Origin: Rhina ancylostomus
Lineage: Eukaryota
Direction: 5' to 3'
DNA: 63,984 nt
Assembly: GCA_030265395.1 (NCBI GenBank)
Contig: JARFYF010000084.1
Span: forward strand, 63,175,176 to 63,239,159
Under the pieces are notes generated by a model. That model did no database searches, was not told the origin of the DNA, and worked only from the letters and a program-made list of their open reading frames with translations. The position numbers were made by a program, and so were the translations under genes. Below are positions 3,820 through 61,034 of the stretch, one piece after another (the first letter of the stretch is position 1; each line of letters begins with the position of its first letter).

Positions 3820-5210
3820 ATCATTAGATGTTAATAGCAAAGAATGAAGCCATAAGGCTAGTTAGCCTGACATCAATAGTAGAGTAACCAATAACATTCA
3901 TAATGAAAAGTGTAATCAGTGGACATGGAGAAAATCACAACACAATTGCAAAGGGTCAGCATAGATGAATGAAGGTAATTCATGTGAGGGTGACTTAGGT
4001 ATGTGTGACATATTTGGATTTTCAAAATGCATTAGATAAGGTGGCACAAAATTAAACTTCATGAGTTTAGAGTTAACTTATTAGCAGAGACAGAGGATTA
4101 GTTAACATACTGAAAAAGAAGGACAGGGTGAAATGTTATTCTTGGGTTAGCAAGCTGGAATTAGTAGGGTACAGTGTTTAGCTATGACAATGTATAATAT
4201 GCAACAATGACTTGAATAATAGGCAAAAACAGAAATGTTGAAGAACACAGTCAAGCAGCATCAGTGGAAAGAGCAGCATCAGTGGAAAGAATGCTGTAAG
4301 AACTCAGTGTCTGTGAAAGCATTATCCGTTGAAGCAAAAGGTATAAGTAAACATTTCTGGTCGAGACCCCACCTCGGGACCACTTTGAAGAGGTTTTCCT
4401 CCAGCAATTTGGAGAAGATTTCCACCTTAAACCTTTTGCTTCCATAGATGCTGCTTGATTCACTCTTGATTCAATGTCTCTTTTGTCTTCAGTAGAATTG
4501 TAATGCCAAATGCAGTAGGCTAGGTTGGAAGAGGTGCAAGGGTAATGCTGCTTCACTTGTATTGATTGTTTGGGTGGCTGGATGTTGGGAAGGGAAAAGA
4601 TGAATGGACAGATGTTGCACCTCTTCTAGTTCCATGAGATCGACCTTGCTATATGTTTATTGACAATATGAGACTGGATGGAAAAGTAAGTTGTGAGGAG
4701 GATGCAAAAAACACAAAGATATAGATCAGTTAAGGGAGTCGGTAAAAATATGCCTTATCAAGTATAATGTGAAGAAATTATACTTGATAAGGCATCTTTT
4801 TACCAACTCCCTTAACTGTGAAGCAGAAAAGAACTGTATTTTTAAAAGGTGATGGACTGTCTTTAAAAGGAGTTGTGTGGATTTGTTGCTCTAATCACAG
4901 AAAATTAATAAATGGGAATAGCAAGTAATTAGGAGTTATATGAGCTTTTATTACAAAAGGCAGAAGAGTATAGATATACCTTACTTGAGAACCCTAACAG
5001 CATGTGTAATGAGAGGATATATTTACATCAAACTGATTTCTGGAATAGTGTGGAGGTTTGTCCGATGATAAGGCATTAAATAAACAATGGTAATCTATGC
5101 TAGAGTTTTGAAGAGTTTAGGTTTCATTGAAATATATAAAATTCTTAAAGGATTTAGATTGCAGGTTCTTCTCCTGGTTGTGGAGTCCAGAACTAGGGGA
5201 TCTCAGTAAG
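3820..5210 (+). mobile_element. degraded CR1 LINE ORF2, interrupted by Penelope fragments
   Basis: atttggattttcaaaatgcattagataaggtggcac resembles LDFQKAFDKVPH, and atgtttattgacaatatgagactgg resembles KFADDTKLG. Confidence 0.65.
4225..4640 (-). mobile_element. Penelope-like element fragments (terminal repeat plus Cys-rich linker preceding the GIY-YIG endonuclease)
   Basis: Minus strand 4640-4495 reads RRCNICPFIFSLPNIQPPKQSIQVKQHYPCTSSNLAYCIW, similar to the Penelope motif RRCxTCP...FQVKQxFTCTSSNLVYCIRC. 4225-4460 is the cagcatc/gatgctgc terminal repeat. Confidence 0.75.
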
Positions 5211-11944: not shown

Positions 11945-12350
11945 GCAGCAAGTCAAGTGGCATCTGTGGAGAGTACAAGATAGAGTTAGTGTATCATGTC
12001 AATGACCTTTTGCCACAATGCTGAAAAGTTAAATGGAAACAAGAGGCTGCAGATGTTGGAAATCTGGAACAACAGACAAAGGAGCTGGAGGAACTCAGTG
12101 GGTCAGGCAGCATCAATGGAGGGAAATGGACATTTGATGTTTTGGTTCGAGGCCTTTAATTAACATGGGTCTCAACCCGAAATGTCAACTGTCCATTTCC
12201 CTCTGTAGATGCTGCCTGACCCACTGAGTTCCTCCAGATCCTTCGTGTGTTGCTGAAAAGTTAAACCTGTTTTTTCCTTTCCACAAATGCTGTCTGATCT
12301 GCTGGAGGTTCCCATTTTGGTTTTATTCGAGGATTCCAGCATCTGTAGTT
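11945..12350. mobile_element. older fold-back Penelope-end element interrupted by a younger one (12034-12250)
   Basis: The left part is ggcatctgtggagag...gagttag and the right part is ttccacaaatgctgtctgatctgctg...ccagcatctgtag. The insertion is flanked by a 15-bp direct repeat. Confidence 0.65.
12034..12250. mobile_element. palindromic (fold-back) Penelope-terminus element with 15-bp TSD tgctgaaaagttaaa
   Basis: Arms ~12073-12155 and ~12167-12252 are reverse complements (ctggaggaactcagtgggtcaggcagcatc / gatgctgcctgacccactgagttcctccag). Direct repeats lie at 12019-12033 and 12251-12265. Confidence 0.85.
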
Positions 12351-18105: not shown

Positions 18106-18909
18106 ATGCTCTGGATTCATTGATTTTGAAAGATCTTGTGATCTGCAACTCAGGGCTCCTTATTTAAGCACAGGCATTTTGCTACTTCCTGAAGGGAAGA
18201 GTTTTCTTCTCTTCAGTCTCCAGATCCTTATATTCATAAGCTTCATCCTGTAAAAATCATCCTGTAAAAATCTACCTGTTTGCCTACCCTCTTGAGTGGG
18301 TGTCAGTGGGCTATTGAAGAAGCTTGTCAGAAGCCACAATCAAATTGGTAAGAATGGAATCCTGTAATCTTTTTTGCCTCTCTGTCAATGCTATCCCCTA
18401 GGATATTGAAAATGTTTTTTTTCAACTCCATGAGCTATCATGTTGCTTCTTGAAGATATACTGGTGAGTCAGTGTTTTTTTTTCTATGCTTTGATGTTCC
18501 TTCCAGTGCTCAAGTTGTTTCCAAAGAGCTTCTTGTATAAGAAGAACAAATGGTAACAGTGAGATTCTAACTATAATATTGACAATTAGGCTGTTTAAGT
18601 GTTATTAAAAATTAAACTGATTCATTAATATTCTGTTGATATTGAATTTTATCGTCCAGTATAATTCATGCCAACTTCATGATAAAATAGCACAAGAGCA
18701 GATACAGCGCAGAGGTGAGAGGTAGCTCAGTATAAAGCATAGTAGAGATTTGCCCAGTATAAAGCAAAGAACTGACCTACTATAAAATGGAAGAATGTGA
18801 TTGGAATATACAAAGCAATGTAAGTGCACATGGAGTAACAGTGATTGGTTACAGATATGTATAGTGTAGAGATTAAGAGTTTTTGGCAGTTGTATTAAGT
18901 TAGTTCAAG

Positions 18910-20394
18910 GTGAGCAAGCTGTTGGAAAAGATTCTTAGAGATAGGATCTATGGGCATTTAGAGAATCATGGTCTGATCAGGGACAGCCAGCATGACTTTG
19001 TGAAGGGCAGAGCATGTCTCACAAGCCTGAAAGGATTCTTTGAGGAGGTGACCAGACAGATTGATGAGGGTAGTGTCGTGGATGTGGTCTACATGGATTT
19101 TAGTATGGCATTTGAGAAGGTTCCACATGGTAGGCTTCTTCAGAAGGTCAGAGGGTATGGGATCCAGGGAAGCTTGCCCATTCAGAATTGGCTTGCCTGT
19201 AGAAAGCAGAGGGTTGTGGTGGACAGAGTGCATTCAGATTGGAGGGCTGTGACTAGCGCTGTCCCACAAGGATCTGTTCTGGGACATCTACTTCTTGTGT
19301 TTTTTATTAATGACTTGGATGAAGGGGTAGAAGGGTGGGTTGACAAATTTGCAGATGACACAAAGGTTGGTGGTGTTGTGGGTAGTGTGGAGGACTGTCA
19401 AAGATTGCAGAGGGCTATTGATAGGATGCAGAGCTGGGCTGAGAAGTGGCAGATGGAGTTCAATCTGGATAAGTGTGAGGTAGTAGATTTTGGAAGGACA
19501 ACTCCAAGGCAGAGTAAAAAGTTAATGGCAGGTTTCTGGGTAGTGTGGAGGAGCAGAGGAATCTGGGGGTTCATATCCACAGATCCCTGTAAGTTGCCTC
19601 ACAGTTGGATAGGGTAGTTAAGAAAGCTTATGGGATGTTAGCTTTCGTAAGACGTGGAATCGAGTTTAAGAGCCACGAGGTAATGATGCAGCTCTACAAA
19701 GCTCTGGTTAGACCACACTTAGAGTAATGTGTCCAGTTCTGGTTGCCTCATTATAGGAAGGATGTGGAAGTGTTGGAAAGAGTGCAGAGGAGATTTACCA
19801 GGATGCTGCCTGGATTGGAGAGTATGGATTGTGAGGAGAGACTAAGGGAGCTAGGACTTTACTCATTGGAGAGAAGGAGGATCAGAGGAGACATGATAGA
19901 GGTATACAAAATATTAAGAGGAATAGATCGAGTGGACAGCCAGCGCCTCTTTCCCAGGGCACCAATGCTCAATACAAGAGAGCATGGCTTTAAGGTAATA
20001 GGTGGGAAGTTCAAGGGACATATCAGAGGGAGGTTTTTCACCCAGAGAGTGGTTGGTGCATGGAATGCACTGCCTGGGGTGGTGGTGGAGGCTGATNNNN
20101 NNNNNNNNNNNNNNNNNNNNNNNNNNNNNNNNNNNNNNNNNNNNNNNNNNNNNNNNNNNNNNNNNNNNNNNNNNNNNNNNNNNNNNNNNNNNNNNNGGAA
20201 TGCGCTGTCTGGGGCAGTGGTGGAGGCAGGTACATTGGTCAAATTCAAGAGATTACTAGATAAGCATTTGGAAGAATTTAAAATAGGGGATATGTGGGGG
20301 AAGGGGTTAGATAATCTTATGTGAGGTTTAAAGGTCGGCACAACATTGTGGGCCGAAGGGCCTGCATTGTGCTGTACTTTCTATGATTCTATGA
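18910..20394 (+). mobile_element. 5'-truncated CR1/HER1-type LINE (RT pseudogene plus 3' end)
   Basis: ORFs 18910-19617 (SQHDF..GRACLT, YMDFSMAFEKVPH, VPQGSVLG, KFADDTK) and 19743-20324 (ERVQRRFTRM...RFFTQRVVGAWNALP) are separated by a frameshift and stop. The 3' tail is gggccgaagggcctg...ttctatgattctatga. Confidence 0.97.
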
Positions 20395-23109: not shown

Positions 23110-23245
23110 GTTGTGATACACAAGAGACTGCAGATGCTGAAATCTACAGCAACAAACAATCTACTGGAGGAACTCAATGGGTTGAGCGGCATCTGTGGGA
23201 GGAAATGGATTGTCAACATTTCGGGTTGAAACCCTGCATAAGGAC
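23110..23245 (-). mobile_element. Penelope-like terminal repeat with degenerate hammerhead
   Basis: gatacacaagagactgcagatgctg...ctggaggaactca...gtcaacatttcgggttgaaaccctgcataaggac. Confidence 0.8.
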
Positions 23246-23379
23246 ATTTGTACTTGATGTGTGGCCTTACTCTCTCAAGGGTATTGAGGGAATGAAGGAA
23301 ATGTTTTACCTTGAAAGCTCAGACCGACAGCAGAGACTCAGACACGTGGAATAAGATCCTAAGAGGTCATAGAGTCATA

Positions 23380-23872
23380 GAGAAACAAAGGACTGCAGAT
23401 GCTGGAATATCTAGATGAAAAACACATTGATGCTGGAGGAACTCAGCAGGCCAGGCAGCATCCGTGGAGAAAAGCAGATGGTCAACGTTTTGGGTCGGGA
23501 GCCTTCTTCAGGACTGAGGATAGGAAAAAGGGAAGCCCGATATATAGGTGCGAAAAACAGAGCAGTGATAGGTGGACAAAAGAGGGGAGGNNNNNNNNNN
23601 NNNNNNNNNNNNNNNNNNNNNNNNNNNNNNNNNNNNNNNNNNNNNNNNNNNNNNNNNNNNNNNNNNNNNNNNNTCCACTGGCGGATGGGTCAAAGGTAAG
23701 AAGGAAAAAGGGGTAGAAAAAAGAGAGATAGGCTAGGAAAGGGGAGAAAAGGGGAGGGATTGTTGTGGTAGGAGGTGGGTGGTTGAGGGGATTATTTAAA
23801 GTGGGAGAATTCAATGTTAATGCCATTAGGCTGCAAGATTCCAAGACACAAAATGAGGTGCTGTTCCTCCAC
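23380..23872 (-). mobile_element. Penelope-like element 3' end: GIY-YIG C-terminus, pyrimidine-rich UTR, hammerhead motif, terminal repeat
   Basis: Minus 23870-23795 reads EEQHLILCLGILQPNGINIEFSHF, similar to the Penelope endonuclease end LEEQHLIFRLGTLQPxGxNIEF. The hammerhead-like motif lies at 23480-23515. Confidence 0.88.
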
Positions 23873-25269
23873 ATTCCTCTACAAGGAACAGCACTACAGC
23901 ACTCCATTTTCTGTCTTGGAACAGGACCTGTCAGCACCTATTTTGTTAAAAGTATGCCTGGTAACAAAGTGATACTTCCACTGACTTGATTTTGTAGATT
24001 AGTTTATAGGTTATTTAAACTACTTACTACTTTTGGATATTTCTGCGCAATCTATCAATGAGTATAGATGGATAGAAATTTACTGCAGTGTTGAGTTCAG
24101 TTAGCACAGATGCTCCCATCAGTGAGTGGGAGGACCATAACTCGTAAGTGTAGCTATTGGTGTTGACAAACCACTTCCTCTGATTGTTGCTGCAAAAAAA
24201 AAGGCAGGTATGTGGGTCCTGAGAACTTGTATTCAAACCAGCAAACCCTTGCAGGTCAGATGTGCCTCTCGGGGACGATGAAAAGTAGGACTGGTGCGTT
24301 CTTGATTTCAATAGNNNNNNNNNNNNNNNNNNNNNNNNNNNNNNNNNNNNNNNNNNNNNNNNNNNNNNNNNNNNNNNNNNNNNNNNNNNNNNNNNNNNNN
24401 NNNNNNNNNNNNNNTAGGACTGGTGAGTTCTTGATTTCAATAGTGTTGTTCTTTTTTTATTAAGAAATATCCACAAATTGTTTACATTTTAGATCTAAGC
24501 AAAATATAGCAGGGAGATAAAAAAAAATGATCAATCGTAAATTAATATTGTTAACGCTCTGTGGGAGAATGAGAAACTTCAAAACTGTGGTTTTTGAAAT
24601 ATTAGCACGTTGAGAAAAATTTAAAGATTTCAATCAAAGCATAAAGTGCTGTGTCTGCATCACATGGTGCAATTACTATGCTTCCCTTAGTTAATGACTC
24701 AAATATGAAAATTTAATTCACTTTGCAGTGTTGTTAAGTGTTTAATGTTTTAATGATTATGACACTTCACAAAGTAACAATGCCAGCATATACTGAATGA
24801 CTAGCCCAGTTGCCACCAGCTTTTAGTATAAAACTCTGGTGCAAATGAAACTTGTGTCATGTCTGTATTCTATCATTGCATGAATTTCAATCAGAACGTG
24901 CAAGGCCACACTCAAAATGTGATCAGTTTGTCATATTCAAGAGCAATCTACAAAATAAAGATGTCTACTTTTTCCCATGGTAGTTGGTCAAATGTGAACT
25001 ATGTGCTCTTAGCTCCGAGCCTATTAAAATCACAATTATCCATCAGTTGATACTCGTTCATTCCTCTATCCCCACACAGTTGAACTGTTACCAGACTGGT
25101 ACTATCACATGATGTAAACAAATTAAAAATGTCATCCTAAAGAAACTAAGTTTGGATCTATAATAAAGGAAATGCATTATATACGGCAACAATTGAGACA
25201 AAAGGAAGTGCAAGAATGACTTGGTCGTCAAGTATTAGTGGAATTAAATTCAAAGGTAGATGGTCAAAG

Positions 25270-30169: not shown

Positions 30170-30303
30170 CTAAAATATAACTTGAGGTCTAAAGTGCATC
30201 TGCTTTGTTGCATTGTTGGACATTGCTGTCTTTAGCATCCACTTGGATTTCATTCTTTGCACATACTGCATATCACGCTCCTTTCTCTGTGATGCTGCTT
30301 TAG
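30170..30303 (-). CDS. ZNF622: ZNF622 last coding exon including stop codon
   Basis: The acceptor tttctttccttaccAG is followed by CT AAA GCA..., which joins the trailing G of the previous exon to give GCT. It encodes KAASQRKERDMQYVQRMKSKWMLKTAMSNNATKQMHFRPQVIF*, matching the ZNF622 C-terminus ERDMQYVQRMKSKWMLKTGMKNNATKQMHFR. Confidence 0.97.
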
Positions 30304-31449
30304 CTGGTAAGGAAAGAAATAACAGTTGATCACATAAACCAGAAGAGTTTATTACACTACTGCCACACATTCAAAAACACCTCAGAAATCAATCTCTAAA
30401 AAAAATTAAATAGTGGTAAATTATCTGTCTAAGCAGCTGTTTCCAACAAGAATATAAATATCACTAATATTTAACATTCTTACTGAAACAAAGTGGAATA
30501 TCTCAGATTTCAGATACTCTAACGCAAAGATAACTTTTTCCACACACACAGCTCAAATTAGTAGTTACTTAATATACAACATCAGTATGCATCACACAAG
30601 ATTTTTCTGAAATTAAAAATCTGTGAAGTTTAGAAACTCAATCAAAGAAGGTTAAAAAAGATAATATATTATGCTGAGAAAATCAGTATTTGAAGATTTT
30701 TGTGACAATAGAGATTTCTTCTCTATTGGAACAGCTCACCGTTATGGAAAAAGGAAATTATTCATTCAGCTGCAAATATACTCATGGTAATTATTCAATG
30801 GAAGGCACAATTTAATTACATTGTTTATGAGCCATTCTTCCTGTAATTATCAAAATTAACATCTTGTCATTATTTGAGCTGTGAAGTCTATCTGATGCAG
30901 GACAGAGAACACCCACAGCTCAGCAAAGCAAGTCTGGTGAAGTGGCACATACATGACACTAAGTTCTTAGAAATCAATCTCTGGTCCAGCAACAATCTAA
31001 AACAGTCAGTCAGATCAATCAGGACTCGGATTTTGGGGAGAAAAAAAAGATTTTGGGGAGAAAGATTTTGAAAAGGTATGAAAAGTCAACAATTTTTATC
31101 ATTAATTTTTTTTAAAATTGCATATGCTACCAGAAAATATTTAAACTCCAATTCATCTTAGAAAACACAATTAGTCTTCAATTAAACAAAATTAAAAAGT
31201 GCACATTTCCTGTCAGATTGTTTATATACAGATTTGTGGATCTGTTTCTTATTATTTACTTCTTTTACAAAATATTCAATGAACAGAAAATGAGGAATTG
31301 TTTAACACAGTATGGTCAGAACATGGCACTTGTTTGGGGCATCATACAGGACTGGTCCCCCGAGGAAGGTAGCAAACGAGGAAGTGCAAAGTTCTCCAGA
31401 TTGATTCCCAGATGGGAGCTGGTGGTTTTTGCAAGAGGAGAGACTAAGC

Positions 31450-31848
31450 ACACTGGGCTAATACTCTCTTAACATTAGAGGAATTGAAACATACAAGATT
31501 CTTATAGCACTTGACAGGATAGATGCAGTAATGATATTTCCACTAGCTGGGCTGTCCAATACAAGGGTCAAAATAAAAGATTGAACATTCAAGAACAAGA
31601 TGCAATGAAATTTCTTAATCGAGAGAGTAGCAAATCATTGGAATTGTCAACCCAAGTGTTGTGGAGGCTCAGTCACTCTGTATGTTCTGGATAGAGAATA
31701 GCAGACCTTTGCATTTTAGGATATCAAGGGATACAGGATTATTGTAAGAAAGTGGCACTAAGGTAAAAGATCACCCATGATTTTATTGAATGGCAGTGCA
31801 GTCACGAGGGATTGAATGGCTTACTCCACATTTCTTATATTCTTATGG
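31450..31848 (+). mobile_element. degraded CR1 3' portion in last ZNF622 intron (antisense)
   Basis: gaaacatacaagattctta...cttgacaggatagatgcag...gaatggcttactcc...tcttatattcttatg. Confidence 0.75.
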
Positions 31849-31989
31849 TTGAGGCAATTGCTTAGACACTATCAAAGCAGCTAGGTAACTGGATGAGGGA
31901 AAAGTACTACGAAATATGTTAAAAGGGTGAGATGAAGTTGATAGAATGAGGAGACACAAGCATGCAGTATACATGTTAGCAAACTACTT

Positions 31990-32245
31990 TGGCTCTTTGT
32001 TACCTCCACACCACCTCCCAGCCTGTCTCTATTTCCACTCTCCCCTCCTCCATCTGTCTTTCACCCCTCCTCACCCAGATCCACCTTTTACCTGCCAGCT
32101 CTTGCTCTACCCCTTCCCTCCACCCTTTTATGCTGGCTAACTCCTCTCTATCTTTCAGTCCTGATGAAGGGTCTCGACCCAAAACATCAACTATCCATTT
32201 CCCTCCTATATGCTGCCTGACCCACTGAATTCCTCGTGTGTTACT
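31990..32245 (+). mobile_element. Penelope-like 3' UTR/terminal repeat with hammerhead motif (32157-32192), in last ZNF622 intron (antisense)
   Basis: A pyrimidine-rich UTR is followed by agtc CTGATGA agggtctcgaccc aaaac atc aact ... tgctgcctgacccactgaattcctc. Confidence 0.85.
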
Positions 32246-32433
32246 TGGGCTGAATGATTTTTTTAACATTTTGTATGATTTATACAATTGAAAAAAAATT
32301 ATACATCAGTATCAATTACTTTATGTTGGACTGTGAATACTTTCTGAAAGACACAACCATAAACAATAACTAGATTTTCATGGCTGAATAGGGCAAAAGA
32401 TTGAAGTTACTGCACAGATGTCAAGACACTTAC

Positions 32434-32577
32434 CAAGCTCACTTGTCCAACCAAGGGCCTTGTACTGCTGTAGCAATCTCCCCAGCACACGGCGAGTTCC
32501 AGTCACAGCCACTGCTCTAGAGGTACCAAAGTGTTGCTTATAGTATCTCAGCAATGACCGATGACCAATTCTAGCGC
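32434..32577 (-). CDS. ZNF622: ZNF622 (cytoplasmic 60S maturation factor, Rei1 homolog), penultimate coding exon
   Basis: The minus strand reads polypyrimidine tttcttcttctgttgaatctcAG | 144-bp exon | GTAAGT. It translates (G)ARIGHRSLLRYYKQHFGTSRAVAVTGTRRVLGRLLQQYKALGWTSEL(A), matching the recalled vertebrate ZNF622 segment GARVGHRSLMRYYKQRFGLSRAVAV...GRVLQQYRALGW. Both ends are phase 1. It is absent from the ORF track because it is short. Confidence 0.96.
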
Positions 32578-33679
32578 CTGAGATTCAACAGAAGAAGAAA
32601 AAAGGTTAGAAACATGAATAGATGAAGGTCAGACCATTCTACCAGCTTGTGCAAGTAACTCTGTCTACGAGTTATCATTAAACAACCTTAAAACTATCTG
32701 CACAGTTCTAAATATATACTGTGAATAAAACAAATTCTATTCACAAAGATTTCATTTTCTTGTAAATGCAGTGCTTTGCCCTTCACTTCCTGGCTCAGAC
32801 ATAAAGATACTGGGTTACTTTTAAAAAGGACACTTTCATTTCTGCATTGTAATTGTGCAGTAGTATTTTACACAGAAGTGTTCCAATATGTGCCTGTAAT
32901 TTGTCGGTTTTACACTAAATACTGAACCAAATTCAAGTTGGACTAACCGGATAGTTCCTGAAAATAGACACACCTTACGGTGTGAGGTTAACCATTGCTA
33001 ATTGTTTATAATCCAGACAGAGTGTCCACTTGCATTGCCTGCTTATCAAGATTACTCCATGCAGTCAGTGTGGATGACTGATTAATACCACTTAAAGCTA
33101 GCTTGTGCTAGCCTGCTTATTGTAAGCGGGATGAGAAGTGGGGAGGTGTATTATGGATGTAACTGCTGATCAAAGTTGTTGAAGAGAAAAATAATCATAC
33201 AATGGCCAATTTGGGAAAGACTAGACTTCAAGACATTCTGATGCTGTGTGGAGGCTTTGGCAGAGGAGTTAGGGGGAGAGAACTGCTCTGTCCTTGGGGC
33301 CAGGAAGATCTTGAGATATCTTCTCACATGACAGTGAAGTCAGACACTGAATACACCAAATGATGCCAGAAGTGAGGCTTTGGAACCTGGTGAAGTGCAG
33401 TAAAATATGTCAATGACGTAAAATTATCTTTAAATCCTGTATTCCATCAACTGTAGTATTGGACACAGATTCTCTTTGATGGACCCCACTCCCATTAAAT
33501 ACTCAGCAACAATATCAATCAGAACCCATACCAAACACTTATATGTTAATTTCGCCTTCACATAATTTTTGCAACTCTACACCTACACCTCACAGTTTAT
33601 CTACACTGCCAGCTATTAAGACATGCTGTGCGAGATTCATTGCCTCATTTCTCATCTTCTTAAAGGACATGACAACTCA

Positions 33680-34699: not shown

Positions 34700-35560
34700 A
34701 AATGAATATCTATAACATACCGTAGGCGATTTAGTGCACCCAAGCTTTGCAGGTTCCTAGCTGAGCAAATCCCTTAGTCCCATTACCCTATTCTTTCTAC
34801 ACAGCTTTGTATGTTATTCTTCCAAGTGCCTATCCAATTGACTTTTACAGGCACTGTATCATTTTATTTCCACCACCCTTAAAGGCAGTGAATTGCAGGT
34901 CATTCCTAATGTCTGAGCAAAAAGAAATACTTCCCTCACATCTCCTTTATGTCTTTTGACCAAAATGTTCAATCTGTGTCCCCTGGTTCTTGAACTAAGC
35001 CAATCACAATCTAAGCCAATCACAATCTTGTACACCTCTATCAGCTTTTCTCATGAAAATATTCACTACCTTCTCCATAGGCAGAGAAGGTGGGCATTTG
35101 ACCCAACATATTTATGCTAATTTAGTTTTAAAGATCTAATCCCTCATCCCTGGAACTATTCCAGTAAAGCCCTGCACCCTCTCAAGGGCTTCACATCCTT
35201 TTGAAAGTGTAGCAATCAGAAATGGAGGTAGAGGTGTAGTTGTGGGCTGACCAGTGTTCTGTATAAGTTCAACTTATGATGAAAGGTCATTGATCTGAAA
35301 TGTTAACTCCTTTTCTTCCTCAGGAGGTGCTGCCTGATCCGTTGATTATCTCGAGCATTGTCTGTTTTTATTTTAGATTTCCAGCGTCTGTCATGTTTTG
35401 GTTCAAAATAACTTACCTATGTTTATACTTTATGTCCCTATTTATTAATCCCAGGATCCCATGTACTTCATTAACTGTTATCTCTACATTAATTGCAATT
35501 TTCATGGCTTTATACATATAAACCCCTAGGCCCCTCCATTCCTGCACATCCTTTAGATCT
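34700..35560 (-). mobile_element. degraded CR1 with inserted Penelope terminal repeat (35270-35400, +)
   Basis: CR1 motifs ccaccacccttaaaggcagtgaattgcaggtc and cctgcaccctctcaagg; insert tgatgaaaggtcattgatctgaaatgttaact...tgctgcctga. Confidence 0.6.
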
Positions 35561-47556: not shown

Positions 47557-49112
47557 ATAAGAACATAAGAAATAGGAGCAGGAGTAGGCCATTTGGCCTG
47601 TCGAGCCTGCTCCGCCATTCAGTAAGATCATGGCTGCTCTGGCCATGGATTCAGATCCACCTACCTGCCTTTTCCCCATAACCCCTAATTCCCCAACATG
47701 CAAAAATCTATCTAACTGTGTCTTAAATATATTTAATGAGGTAGCCCCTACTGCTTCCCTGGGCAGAGAATTCCACAGATTCACNNNNNNNNNNNNNNNN
47801 NNNNNNNNNNNNNNNNNNNNNNNNNNNNNNNNNNNNNNNNNNNNNNNNNNNNNNNNNNNNNNNNNNNNNNNNNNNNNNNNNNNNNNNNNNNNNNNNNNNN
47901 NNNNNNNNNNNNNNNNNNNNNNNNNNNNNNNNNNNNNNNNNNNNNNNNNNNNNNNNNNNNNNNNNNNNNNNNNNNNNNNNNNNNNNNNNNNNNNNNNNNN
48001 NNNNNNNNNNNNNNNNNNNNNNNNNNNNNNNNNNNNNNNNNNNNNNNNNNNNNNNNNNNNNNNNNNNNNNNNNNNNNNNNNNNNNNNNNNNNNNNNNNNN
48101 NNNNNNNNNNNNNNNNNNNNNNNNNNNNNNNNNNNNNNNNNNNNNNNNNNNNNNNNNNNNCCTCTCGCATTGAAGGCCAACATTCCATCTGTCTTCTTGA
48201 TAATCTGTTGCACCTGCAAACCAACCTTTTGTGATTCATGCACAAGCACTCCCAAGTACCTCTGAAAAACAGCATGCTGCAATCTTTCACCATTTAAATA
48301 ACAATCTGACCTTTTAATTTTTCTTCCAAAGTGGATGACCTCACATTTATCAACACTGTACTCCATCTGCCAGACATTTGCCCACTCACTTAACCTATCC
48401 ATATCTATCTGCAGAATCTCCACATCCTCTGCGCAATTTGCTTTTCTGCTCAATTTAGTGTCATCAGCAAACTTAGATCTGCTACACTCGGTCACCTCTT
48501 CCAAATCATTAACGTATATTGTGAACAGTTGCGGGCCCAGCACTGACCCCTTCGGTACTCTGCTCACCACTGGTTGCCAACTAGAGAAATACCCATTTAT
48601 CCCAACTCTTTACCTTCTATTTGTTAACCAATCCTCTATCCATTCTAATACCTTACCCCAACCATGCATCCTTATCTTAGGGATAAGTCTTTTATTGAAT
48701 GCCTTCTGGAAATTCAAGTATACAACATCCACCTGTTCCCCTCTATCCACTGTACTCATTATATCCCTAAAGAACTCTAGTAAGTTTGTCAAACAGAACC
48801 TACCCTTCCTGAATCTATGCTGTGTCTGCCTGATGGAACCTGTTCTATCCAGATATCTTGCTATTTCTCCCTTAATGATGGCTTCAAGCATTTTCCCAAC
48901 TACACACATTAAGCTAACTGGCCTGTAGTTACCTGCCTTTTGCCTACATCCTTTTTTAAACAGTGGTGTGACATTCACTGTCTTCCAGTCCACCAGGACC
49001 TGCCCAGAGCCCAGAGAATTTTGGTAAATTATCACAAATGCCTCTATTATAACTTATGCCATCTCTTTCAGTACCCTGGAATGCATCCTATCATGACTTG
49101 GGGACTTGTCTA
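47557..49112 (-). mobile_element. 5'-truncated CR1 LINE (RT pseudogene plus 3' end)
   Basis: ORFs 48610-49035 (DWKTVNVTPLFKKG..NYRPVSL..FCLTNLLEFF) and 47518-48570 (VPKGSVLGPQLFTIYVNDL..KFADDTK). Tail ataagaacataagaaataggagcaggagtaggcc on +. Confidence 0.96.
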
Positions 49113-58242: not shown

Positions 58243-59625
58243 TTCAAGTTTATTGTCATGGACATACATACCTAAGGTATAAATGCCATGAAAATTAGCT
58301 TTTTGCAGCAGCAGCAGCGTACTTTACAAACATAAGATATAAGATTTCTTTATTAGTTACATGTACATTGAAAGACACAGTGAAATGCATCTTTTGCGCA
58401 GATTGTTCTGGGGGCAGCCCACAAGTATTGCCGCACGTTCAGTGCCAACATAGCATGCCCACAACTTCCTTTGGAATGTGTGAGGAAACCGGAGCACCCA
58501 GGGGAAACCCATGCAGTCATGGGGAGAACATACAAACTCCTTACAGACAGCGGCTGGATTTGAAGCTGGGTCGCTGGCGCTGTAATAGCGTTATGCTAAC
58601 CACTACACTACTGTGCCTGCCATGACAAACGTAAGTTACATAAACTTAAATTAACATAAATTATACATAACTTACATGACACACTAAACAAAAATTAACA
58701 TAACCACATTAGTGCAAATTGAGGAAATTATAATCCAGGGTAGTGTTAGGGTTTTNNNNNNNNNNNNNNNNNNNNNNNNNNNNNNNNNNNNNNNNNNNNN
58801 NNNNNNNNNNNNNNNNNNNNNNNNNNNNNNNNNNNNNNNNNNNNNNNNNNNNNNNACTGTGGCTGCCATGACAAACGTAAGTTACCTAAACTTAAATTAA
58901 CATAAATTATACATAACTTACATGACACAATAAACAAAAATTAACATAACCACATTAGTGCAAATTGAGGAAATTATAATCCAGGGTAGTGTTAGGGTTT
59001 TTTGGGTCGGTTCAAGAACCTGATGGCAGTGGGGATGAAGGTGTTGTTGAACCTTGAGGTCTGGGTCTTCAGGCTCCTGTACCTCCTTGCTGATGGCAAC
59101 AATGAGAAGAAGGCATGGCCCTGATGGTGGGGGTCCCTGATGGTGGGGGGTCCCTGATGATGGATGCCTCCTTCCTGAGACATTGCCTCTTGTAGATATC
59201 CTCGATGGTAGGGAGAGATGTACCTATGACGGAACTGGCTGAGTCAGTCCCCTACTCTCTGTAGCTTCTTGCATTTCTGTGCGTTGGAGATTACATACCA
59301 GGCCATGATGTAACCAGTCAAAATGCTTTCCACAGTGCATCTGTAGAAGTTTGTCAGAGTCTTTGGTGACATGCTGAATCTCCTTGAACTTCCAATAAAA
59401 TAGAGATGCTGCCACACCTTCTTCATGGTTACATCTGTGTGCTGGGCCCAGGATGTTGAGTACTCCGAGATATTGACACCCAGGAACTTAAAGCTGCTCA
59501 CCCTTTCCACTGCAGACCCCCCTTAAGTACTGGTGCTAGTTTGCCTGACTTCCCCTTCTTAAAGCCTGCAACCAGCTCCTTGGCTTTACTGACACTGAGT
59601 GCAAGGTTGTTGTTATGACATTAGC
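58243..59625 (-). mobile_element. Rex1/Babar LINE 3' portion with nested V-SINE
   Basis: ERVSSFKFLGVNISE...LTNFYRCTVESILTG..AWY (59244-59510) and DPHHQGHAFFSLLPSARRYRSLKTQTSRFNNTFIPTAIRFLN (58992-59183); tail ttcaagtttattgtca. Confidence 0.93.
58334..58620 (-). mobile_element. near full-length V-SINE with non-CR1 tail
   Basis: Minus strand: gcaggcacagtagtgtagtggttagc (A-box-like)...cttcaaatcc (B-box-like)...ctgtctgtaaggagtttgta...V-domain...catttcactgtgtctttcaatgtacatgtaactaataaagaaatcttatatctt. Confidence 0.9.
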
Positions 59626-60939: not shown

Positions 60940-61034
60940 AATAATAAAAACAGAATCAGGCAAAATCAGATCAGGCAAAATCTGTGGAGAGAGAAAGAGA
61001 ATCAATGTTTCAGGTCTGACCTTTCATCAGAACT
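60940..61034 (-). mobile_element. Penelope-type terminal repeat with hammerhead motif at 61000-61034
   Basis: Minus strand reads agtt CTGATGA aaggtcagacct GAAAC att gatt ctctttctctctccacaga. Confidence 0.75.

Follow-up and report, generated by a model that had tools for sequence, protein, structure and literature searches.

A CpG-decayed, probably Penelope-derived hammerhead motif in a ZNF622 intron of the ray Rhina ancylostomus, and a 5' edge shared by its genomic relatives

Minimal hammerhead ribozymes (min-HHRs) have been described in the pseudo-LTRs (pLTRs) of metazoan Penelope-like elements (PLEs) (Lunse et al., via PMC6765202), with the consensus core CUGANGAH (supplement of PMC4209133), no cleavage as monomers and low cleavage as dimers (Cervera and De la Pena, 2014, PMC4209133). 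Among PLEs, a CX2-5CxxC linker defines Neptune and is common to Nematis (PMC8557442). In the Anolis Poseidon element PAc, the hammerhead cuts only in the presence of the element protein, insertion proceeds from uncleaved RNA, reverse transcription starts internally, and no RNA reads ending at the cut site are reported (PMC11167929). The Penelope element of D. virilis has an internal promoter with an initiator (PMC2377424), and non-LTR retrozymes have been reported in one chondrichthyan genome (bioRxiv 2026.07.22.740005; PMC7229834). No agreed role has yet been assigned to PLE hammerheads (PMC8557442, PMC11167929).

The locus analysed here lies in the ray window, by which we mean the whole 63,984-nt stretch of DNA under study. 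A preliminary description had recognized a hammerhead motif at 32157-32192, and the letters at this and four other cited places are as it gave them. The motif sits within a 5'-truncated Penelope-like element end of about 247 bp (31995..32241, plus strand) that comprises a pyrimidine-rich 3' UTR, the hammerhead and a partial tail. The left edge at 31995 was placed from a probable 10-bp target-site duplication, read from the letters, whose left copy (31985..31994, plus strand) is identical at 9/10 positions to the right copy (32242..32251, plus strand). Compared to young copies, the element is colinear over 32064-32235 at 73-76% identity, and the profile match to it extends over 32082-32242 with 98 bits.

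Along the plus strand, the 5' strand of stem I occupies 32156..32160, as assigned from the letters and from pairing in intact copies; the same five positions also fit an initiator-like motif (A at 32157) and a 3' splice-site-like AG behind a pyrimidine tract. The CUGAUGA core (C3-A9) with the extra nucleotide typical of PLE hammerheads is intact (32161..32168, plus strand), as is stem II, for which the computed fold gives 4 bp and a 4-nt loop (32169..32180, plus strand). The GAAA core and zero-loop stem III (32181..32188, plus strand) are broken, as judged by alignment with intact copies and by CpG decay rates: G12 (32181) and G16.2 (32186) are both A, and the predicted cleavage point follows C17 (32188). 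The 3' strand of stem I (32189..32193, plus strand) carries A in place of G1.1 (32189), which breaks the junction-closing pair. The copy therefore lacks both the G12 and the paired junction stems that an active hammerhead requires. G12 is the general base of the hammerhead (PMC6155905), and its loss predicts that this copy is dead.

The placement of the copy inside a ZNF622 intron and antisense to the gene was borne out. The exon at 32429-32581 corresponds to residues 387-436 of human ZNF622 (E 2e-18) and matches a sawfish protein at 98%, the last exon lies at 30173-30303, and the last intron runs from 30304 to 32433 on the minus strand with a GT donor and an AG acceptor at its bounds. The assembly divides ZNF622 between two places: this one holds the last two exons (30173-32581, minus strand), and residues 1-375 are encoded 8.3 Mb away on the plus strand (contig C84, 71472165-71481316), which is probably a scaffolding inversion or misjoin and possibly a real breakpoint. 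With exons 1-4 mapped to another place, the part of ZNF622 whose introns can be demonstrated contains a single copy. Genome-wide, intact motifs are equally frequent on the two assembly strands (1186 and 1212), a count that is uninformative on gene orientation.

Domesticated intronic hammerheads exist in amniotes (PMC6155905), and with CUGAUGA and stem II both kept, the intronic copy might be read as a co-opted active ribozyme that regulates ZNF622. We regard this as exceedingly improbable: the copy runs antisense to the gene, neither the general base (PMC6155905) nor the stem III palindrome is left, and no partner lies nearby, with a double-hammerhead fold energy in the nearest-neighbour model of -0.2 kcal/mol vs -19.3 kcal/mol for an intact copy. 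Moreover, all three losses are CpG-type G-to-A changes of the same kind as those found family-wide. The window copy is instead likely to be a CpG-decayed, inert hammerhead of a Penelope-like terminal repeat (pseudo-LTR), inserted antisense in the last ZNF622 intron, and the locus itself is ordinary.

The intact consensus that had been pieced together from the decayed copies proved to be real, as 273 exact core copies occur in the 2.2-Gb genome and none in the reversed control. Intact copies are built of a 5-bp stem I, CUGANGA, one extra nucleotide, a stem II of 4-5 bp, GAAA and a loopless ACGU palindrome, with cleavage predicted after C17 or U17. The pattern of canonical core and stems, including GAAA, a palindromic N15.2-N16.2 without a loop, U16.1 and H17, has 2,398 matches in the genome and 0 in the reversed control. 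The original reading of a minimal type I hammerhead with palindromic ACGU as stem III thus stands, and its 5-bp stem II with a 2-nt loop does not: a 2-nt loop cannot close, so stem II of the main family has 4 bp and a 4-nt loop. At the family level, the sequence features tested for a PLE minimal hammerhead were found, and cleavage itself is a prediction made from them.

Four subfamilies were distinguished in an unbiased sample of 229 copies (A 51, B 112, C 20, D 46). CUGANGA followed by one extra nucleotide before stem II is present in subfamilies A, B and C. In subfamily D, 17/22 copies covering the site have C at position 9, and 260 otherwise intact matches of this type occur genome-wide; by its letters, this core could be an alternative, shifted register with the extra base before A9. 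A occupies core position 4 in 10/31 copies assigned to family A. Two abundant subgroups, one with C at position 9 and one with A at position 4, have spread with altered, non-canonical cores. All seven scored copies of the A-at-4 subgroup (L238:382-428 and a listed set of 20 copies) carry a C-containing tail variant.

Stems I and II are paired in 88.6% of cells, and pairing in unselected copies agrees with that in copies selected by pattern. Double changes occur at two pairs: stem I closes on U-A where other copies have C-G, and stem II has A-U in place of G-C as its outer pair. The second family proposed in the preliminary description is real, with 38 exact copies in which U-A in place of C-G closes stem I. 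Compensatory stems between families are supported, with each of the two pairs reflecting one lineage event. Because both pairs mark a single split of B versus A/C/D and stem II was preset by the search patterns, we consider the covariation supportive but weak. In folding calculations, the double-hammerhead fold of an intact A copy reached -19.3 kcal/mol vs a dimer minimum of -34.9 kcal/mol, so intact copies prefer other folds in this model, and single-strand folding z-scores were weak (-0.5 to -1.9).

The window holds more copies than the approximately ten originally counted: a profile search, for which reversed-sequence controls peak at 7.1-7.5 bits, returned 20 remnants that score 12 bits or more. 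Of the 15 window copies that reach 20 bits, none passed the structural descriptor for an intact core, and the CTGANGA heptamer is in mild excess (50 vs 37.9 expected, with 4/100 shuffles reaching 50). An Rfam scan of the window with E up to 10 found no hammerhead family; its MIR2118_2 match at 12082-12240 was rejected, as it is merely the inverted pair of element ends that lies there. This pair (12042..12261) is arranged head to head, and each end is cut inside the hammerhead. The motif at 23480-23515, which had contributed to the inferred main-family consensus, represents a third subfamily, in which position 17 is U: it is part of a subfamily C copy (23376..23584, minus strand) with CUGAAGA and U17 that has lost G12 and has a GIY-YIG remnant upstream at 23774-23875. 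A subfamily D copy with C at position 9 begins at the stem I edge (23114..23245, minus strand). Subfamily B, the second family of the preliminary description, is represented by decayed copies at 35277..35409 (plus strand) and 60942..61034 (minus strand), the latter beginning at the first A of stem I with a G before it.

The window contains several other repeats. The segment 13454-14084 has 171-nt terminal inverted arms with 94% complementarity and 289 nt between them, and looks like a MITE or non-autonomous DNA transposon. A near-perfect 42-bp hairpin with an 8-nt loop (4727-4818) adjoins a Penelope ORF remnant (4509-4622). Reverse transcriptase (RT) remnants at 18904-19614 (plus strand) and 48160-49053 (minus strand) are, by their motifs, what we take to be CR1/L2-type LINE sequences.

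The genomic load was estimated from 119 evenly spaced stretches of about 10 kb in large contigs (1,041,311 non-N bases). These contained 235 matches of at least 15 bits, which corresponds to an estimated 4.4-5.0 x 10^5 per genome, and the modelled element ends alone account for 2.3% of bases. The suggestion of a very large functional ribozyme load did not hold up, as the 2,398 intact-core matches amount to about 0.5% of the estimated 4-5 x 10^5 remnants and about 99.5% are fossil; with a looser structural descriptor, 6/229 sampled copies pass. Decay is concentrated at CpG positions, where 114/341 cells were changed vs 67/1045 elsewhere. Four CpGs overlap the motif, and G12, C15.2/G16.2 and G1.1 are therefore quickly lost: among family A copies that span the motif, 16/32 keep G12 and 4/32 keep G12, C15.2 and G16.2 together. 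With four core CpGs and about 99.5% of an estimated half-million copies dead, the family illustrates a vertebrate genome disarming a ribozyme repeat.

At 58610-59001, duplicated sequence flanks a 100-N gap (98% identical 146-mers around 58756-58855), and the same arrangement is found on contig C7 (L136). This points to scaffold overlap artefacts, which inflate repeat counts.

The proposed link to Penelope elements was strengthened by the sequence upstream of the motif. Copies have about 110 nt downstream of the motif in common and vary in upstream length, and longer copies have RT and GIY-YIG endonuclease sequence upstream, with endonuclease remnants also preceding copies of subfamilies B and C; the endonuclease was matched with a Pfam E of 0.002, and the Pfam scores (18.7 and 20.9 bits) are below the curated cut-off of 22.6 bits. 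Long open frames around these endonuclease matches were discarded as runs of N. Starting from RT, the same hammerhead or tail was found 1.2-1.5 kb downstream on the same strand in 10/20 loci, and in most of the other 10 the downstream stretch is N-masked or truncated. One locus (L007/L074) combines RT, endonuclease and the exact intact motif. Among longer proteins in the database, one relative, P0001 from a ray, has the RT motif YIDD, a Cx4CxxC linker and CCHH.

Extension in the upstream direction led to DKG and GLxF motifs and to an N-terminal region rich in proline, which gives the element order N-terminal GLxF and DKG, RT (YIDD), Cx4CxxC linker, CCHH-type GIY-YIG, hammerhead and tail of about 110 nt. 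This two-step upstream walk found no full-length element and no 5' pLTR in tandem. The CX2-5CxxC linker between RT and endonuclease is present in both P0001 and L007, and these motifs point to Neptune or Nematis, with Neptune the likely clade of the element. Most copies are short 3' stubs, an inverted partner lies directly upstream in 59/229 sampled copies, and 3' ends are spread, with clusters near +100 and +125-135. Together, these data make us confident that the hammerhead belongs to the pLTR of a Penelope-like retrotransposon with an endonuclease and that the window copy is a decayed, probably inert example.

An excess of copies begins at the same place, the 5' strand of stem I. In the sample of 229, 26 copies have their 5' ends at -6..-2 relative to C3 vs 5.2 under a constant-hazard simulation, which drew on copies that also seeded the profiles; around the cleavage site, the same comparison gave 19 vs 17.3. 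The flanks of these edge copies are unrelated DNA or inverted tails. Genome-wide, a junction pattern matched 691 times at the stem I edge vs 97 times at a control site in the tail, the motif of which is the commoner of the two (21 vs 8 in the sample). The base before the first A, tallied by hand, was C in 54, G in 28, A in 12 and T in 6 among 100 listed of the 691 edge matches, and C in 68, T in 14, A in 12 and G in 3 among all 97 control matches, part of which are colinear copies with a mutated flank. Among non-C bases, G is therefore enriched at the edge (28/46 vs 3/29, Fisher p 1e-5), with the 28 cases distributed over subfamilies A (14), C (8) and D (6).

The first A of stem I agrees with the consensus of an initiator, BBCA+1BW (PMC5287114). 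In L1, an additional G derived from the cap is present in full-length copies (PMC11702581). A downstream promoter element, sought by eye at +28 to +32, was not matched. We propose that the element RNA would start, capped, at the first A of stem I, and that reverse transcription primed within the tail would run off this capped, uncleaved RNA start, such that many stubs would derive from uncut RNA. Whether this is so seems to us evenly poised.

To trace the G bases, we examined 40 junction loci (all 28 with G and 12 of the 72 others among the 100 listed). Target-site duplications were seen by eye at 7/40, and an automated test found them in 6/33 vs 68/1287 mismatched pairs, some of the automated matches being spurious. 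The traced G lies inside the target-site duplication (L306, L312, L327) or comes from the inverted tail (L302, L310, L324), often with A as the next base in the donor, and no untemplated G was demonstrated among the 28 G loci. This pattern fits annealing of a cDNA with an extra terminal C and is not proof of it. In addition, the base ahead of the A is still the C of the element itself in 54/100 listed edge copies, which puts many ends at -5 or -6.

We also considered a footprint of cleavage itself in the junctions and rejected it, as it is absent in the profile sample and is weak and pattern-confounded genome-wide. Among 100 listed of 514 matches to a cut-site pattern, 30/87 starts fall at +27/+28 vs 17 expected (25/82 without five stem I fold-backs, p 0.01); per base, this excess is about 6x weaker than that at the edge, with small normalising counts.

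RNA reads of another organism, from one study, have their largest upstream piles of loose ends at -5 and -4, which indicates that the pile-up of junctions extends beyond this assembly. There was no place in these reads where many begin or end. They cover both strands and mostly run into unrelated sequence, which argues for read-through rather than element starts. Templated traced G, kept C, the weak cut-site excess and the lack of a pile of read ends are the reasons why we place the capped start no higher than an even balance. Separately, in run X23, compared with L015:1496-1531, an abundant transcript (about 3,700 reads) includes a D-type copy with its start at -5 and without G16.2. Words of the family A end recur in runs of 12 organisms, in several of them at a low share, and a wide distribution of the family among relatives is therefore probable.

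Several of these observations bear equally on a stem I pile-up that involves no RNA end, caused either by RT stalling after the hairpin or by microhomology or fold-back junctions through stem I. Many inverted junctions do lie at stem I or at CAG/CTG homology, the traced G bases are for the most part templated, and the C at -5 is kept in the 54 listed edge copies noted above. However, such a mechanism gives no reason for an excess specific to G at the edge and not at the control junction, and many edge copies have an unrelated flank and no inverted piece. We consider it rather unlikely, if the strongest of the competing accounts.

Alternatively, the AG of stem I could act as a 3' splice site, by analogy with the Penelope element of D. 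virilis, where the intron ends at helix I (PMC4209133), and edge copies would then derive from spliced RNA. A pyrimidine tract followed by CAG is indeed present here in all four subfamilies; however, the upstream letters differ between copies, which leaves no common first exon, and the upstream flank is target DNA wherever a duplication is visible. An A before AG is common at exon ends; among the listed edge copies it is under-represented (12/100). Taken together, these features make a spliced origin very improbable.

The sharp common start and the size of about 145 nt would also suit a self-propagating non-autonomous short element or retrozyme that begins with stem I and has its own transcript as template. 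PLE terminal repeats are the source of retrozymes (bioRxiv 2026.07.22.740005), and the target-site duplications seen at 7/40 junction loci are compatible with mobility of this kind. Against it, subfamilies A, C and D all show this edge together with the G excess, and all three include longer colinear copies as well; 5' ends are spread continuously on both sides of the edge. Among 105 loci anchored on an intact motif, none has tandem repeats with a complete hammerhead in consecutive units, and the short series of units at L175 consists of partial, mostly decayed ones. We therefore think an independent short element unlikely. The one close tandem pair of intact copies, on C7, was set aside because it is the same sequence duplicated on the two sides of a 100-N scaffold gap. 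At L175:1460-1640, L304, L319 and L325, hammerhead starts are repeated in short runs, as if the polymerase had restarted several times at the stem I edge.

Under the preferred reading of a capped RNA start at stem I, many stubs would have been copied from uncut RNA, and cleavage would therefore probably not be needed for insertions. By analogy with the described systems, cleavage of an intact copy after C17 would require a dimer formed through the ACGU palindrome and would be weak, probably with help from the element protein. We tentatively extend this to a model, which we hold to be somewhat less probable than the capped start itself, in which the 5' strand of stem I doubles as a transcription initiator, run-off produces the stubs of about 145 nt (tens of thousands), and the hammerhead acts as a post-transcriptional decapping switch that removes a capped 32-mer. 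Such a role, if true, would explain the spread of the subfamilies with altered cores (C at position 9, A at position 4). If the shared edge is a capped RNA start, genome fossils would read out cut versus uncut templates and would give a precise site for a test.

We found no account in the literature of a cap-marked edge or of these ray families; Lunse et al. may hold shark sequences or core variants, and names are possible in Repbase or Dfam. Neither the compared part of the supplementary alignment of PMC4209133 nor its supplement file 2 includes a cartilaginous fish, and subgroups with C at position 9 or A at position 4 are absent from that part of the alignment. The architecture of the ray families is that of the published dimer-type minimal hammerhead of Penelope-like elements (PMC4209133). 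Like the min-HHRs of that study, they have type I topology, CUGANGAH, an extra nucleotide before stem II, G10.1-C11.1, a loopless palindromic 15.2-16.2, C or U at position 17, several families in one genome, solo remnants in massive numbers and pairs on opposite strands. Unlike those, stem II of the ray families is short (4-5 bp), and the ray remnants are far more abundant, although the 2,398 intact cores are of the order of those in coelacanth (about 4,000) and Xenopus (about 9,000) (PMC4209133).

The parent element resembles Neptune/Nematis-type endonuclease-bearing (EN+) PLEs (PMC8557442) in its C-terminal GIY-YIG with CCHH, CX2-5CxxC linker, DKG, heavy 5' truncation, inverted 5' copy and optional tail; unlike them, it was recovered only as partial copies, none intact or full-length. 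Unlike non-LTR retrozymes, which form tandem arrays with a hammerhead per unit, the ray copies are dispersed solos or inverted pairs, and the two have in common a type I hammerhead and an origin in PLE terminal repeats (bioRxiv 2026.07.22.740005; PMC7229834). As in Anolis PAc (PMC11167929), the hammerhead is followed by a tail, which in PAc measures 110-150 nt and has ends that mark RT starts; unlike the ray element, PAc is without the linker and belongs to the Penelope/Poseidon clade. The account of PAc consulted here includes neither a mapped RNA start nor a pile-up of 5' junctions at stem I (PMC11167929).
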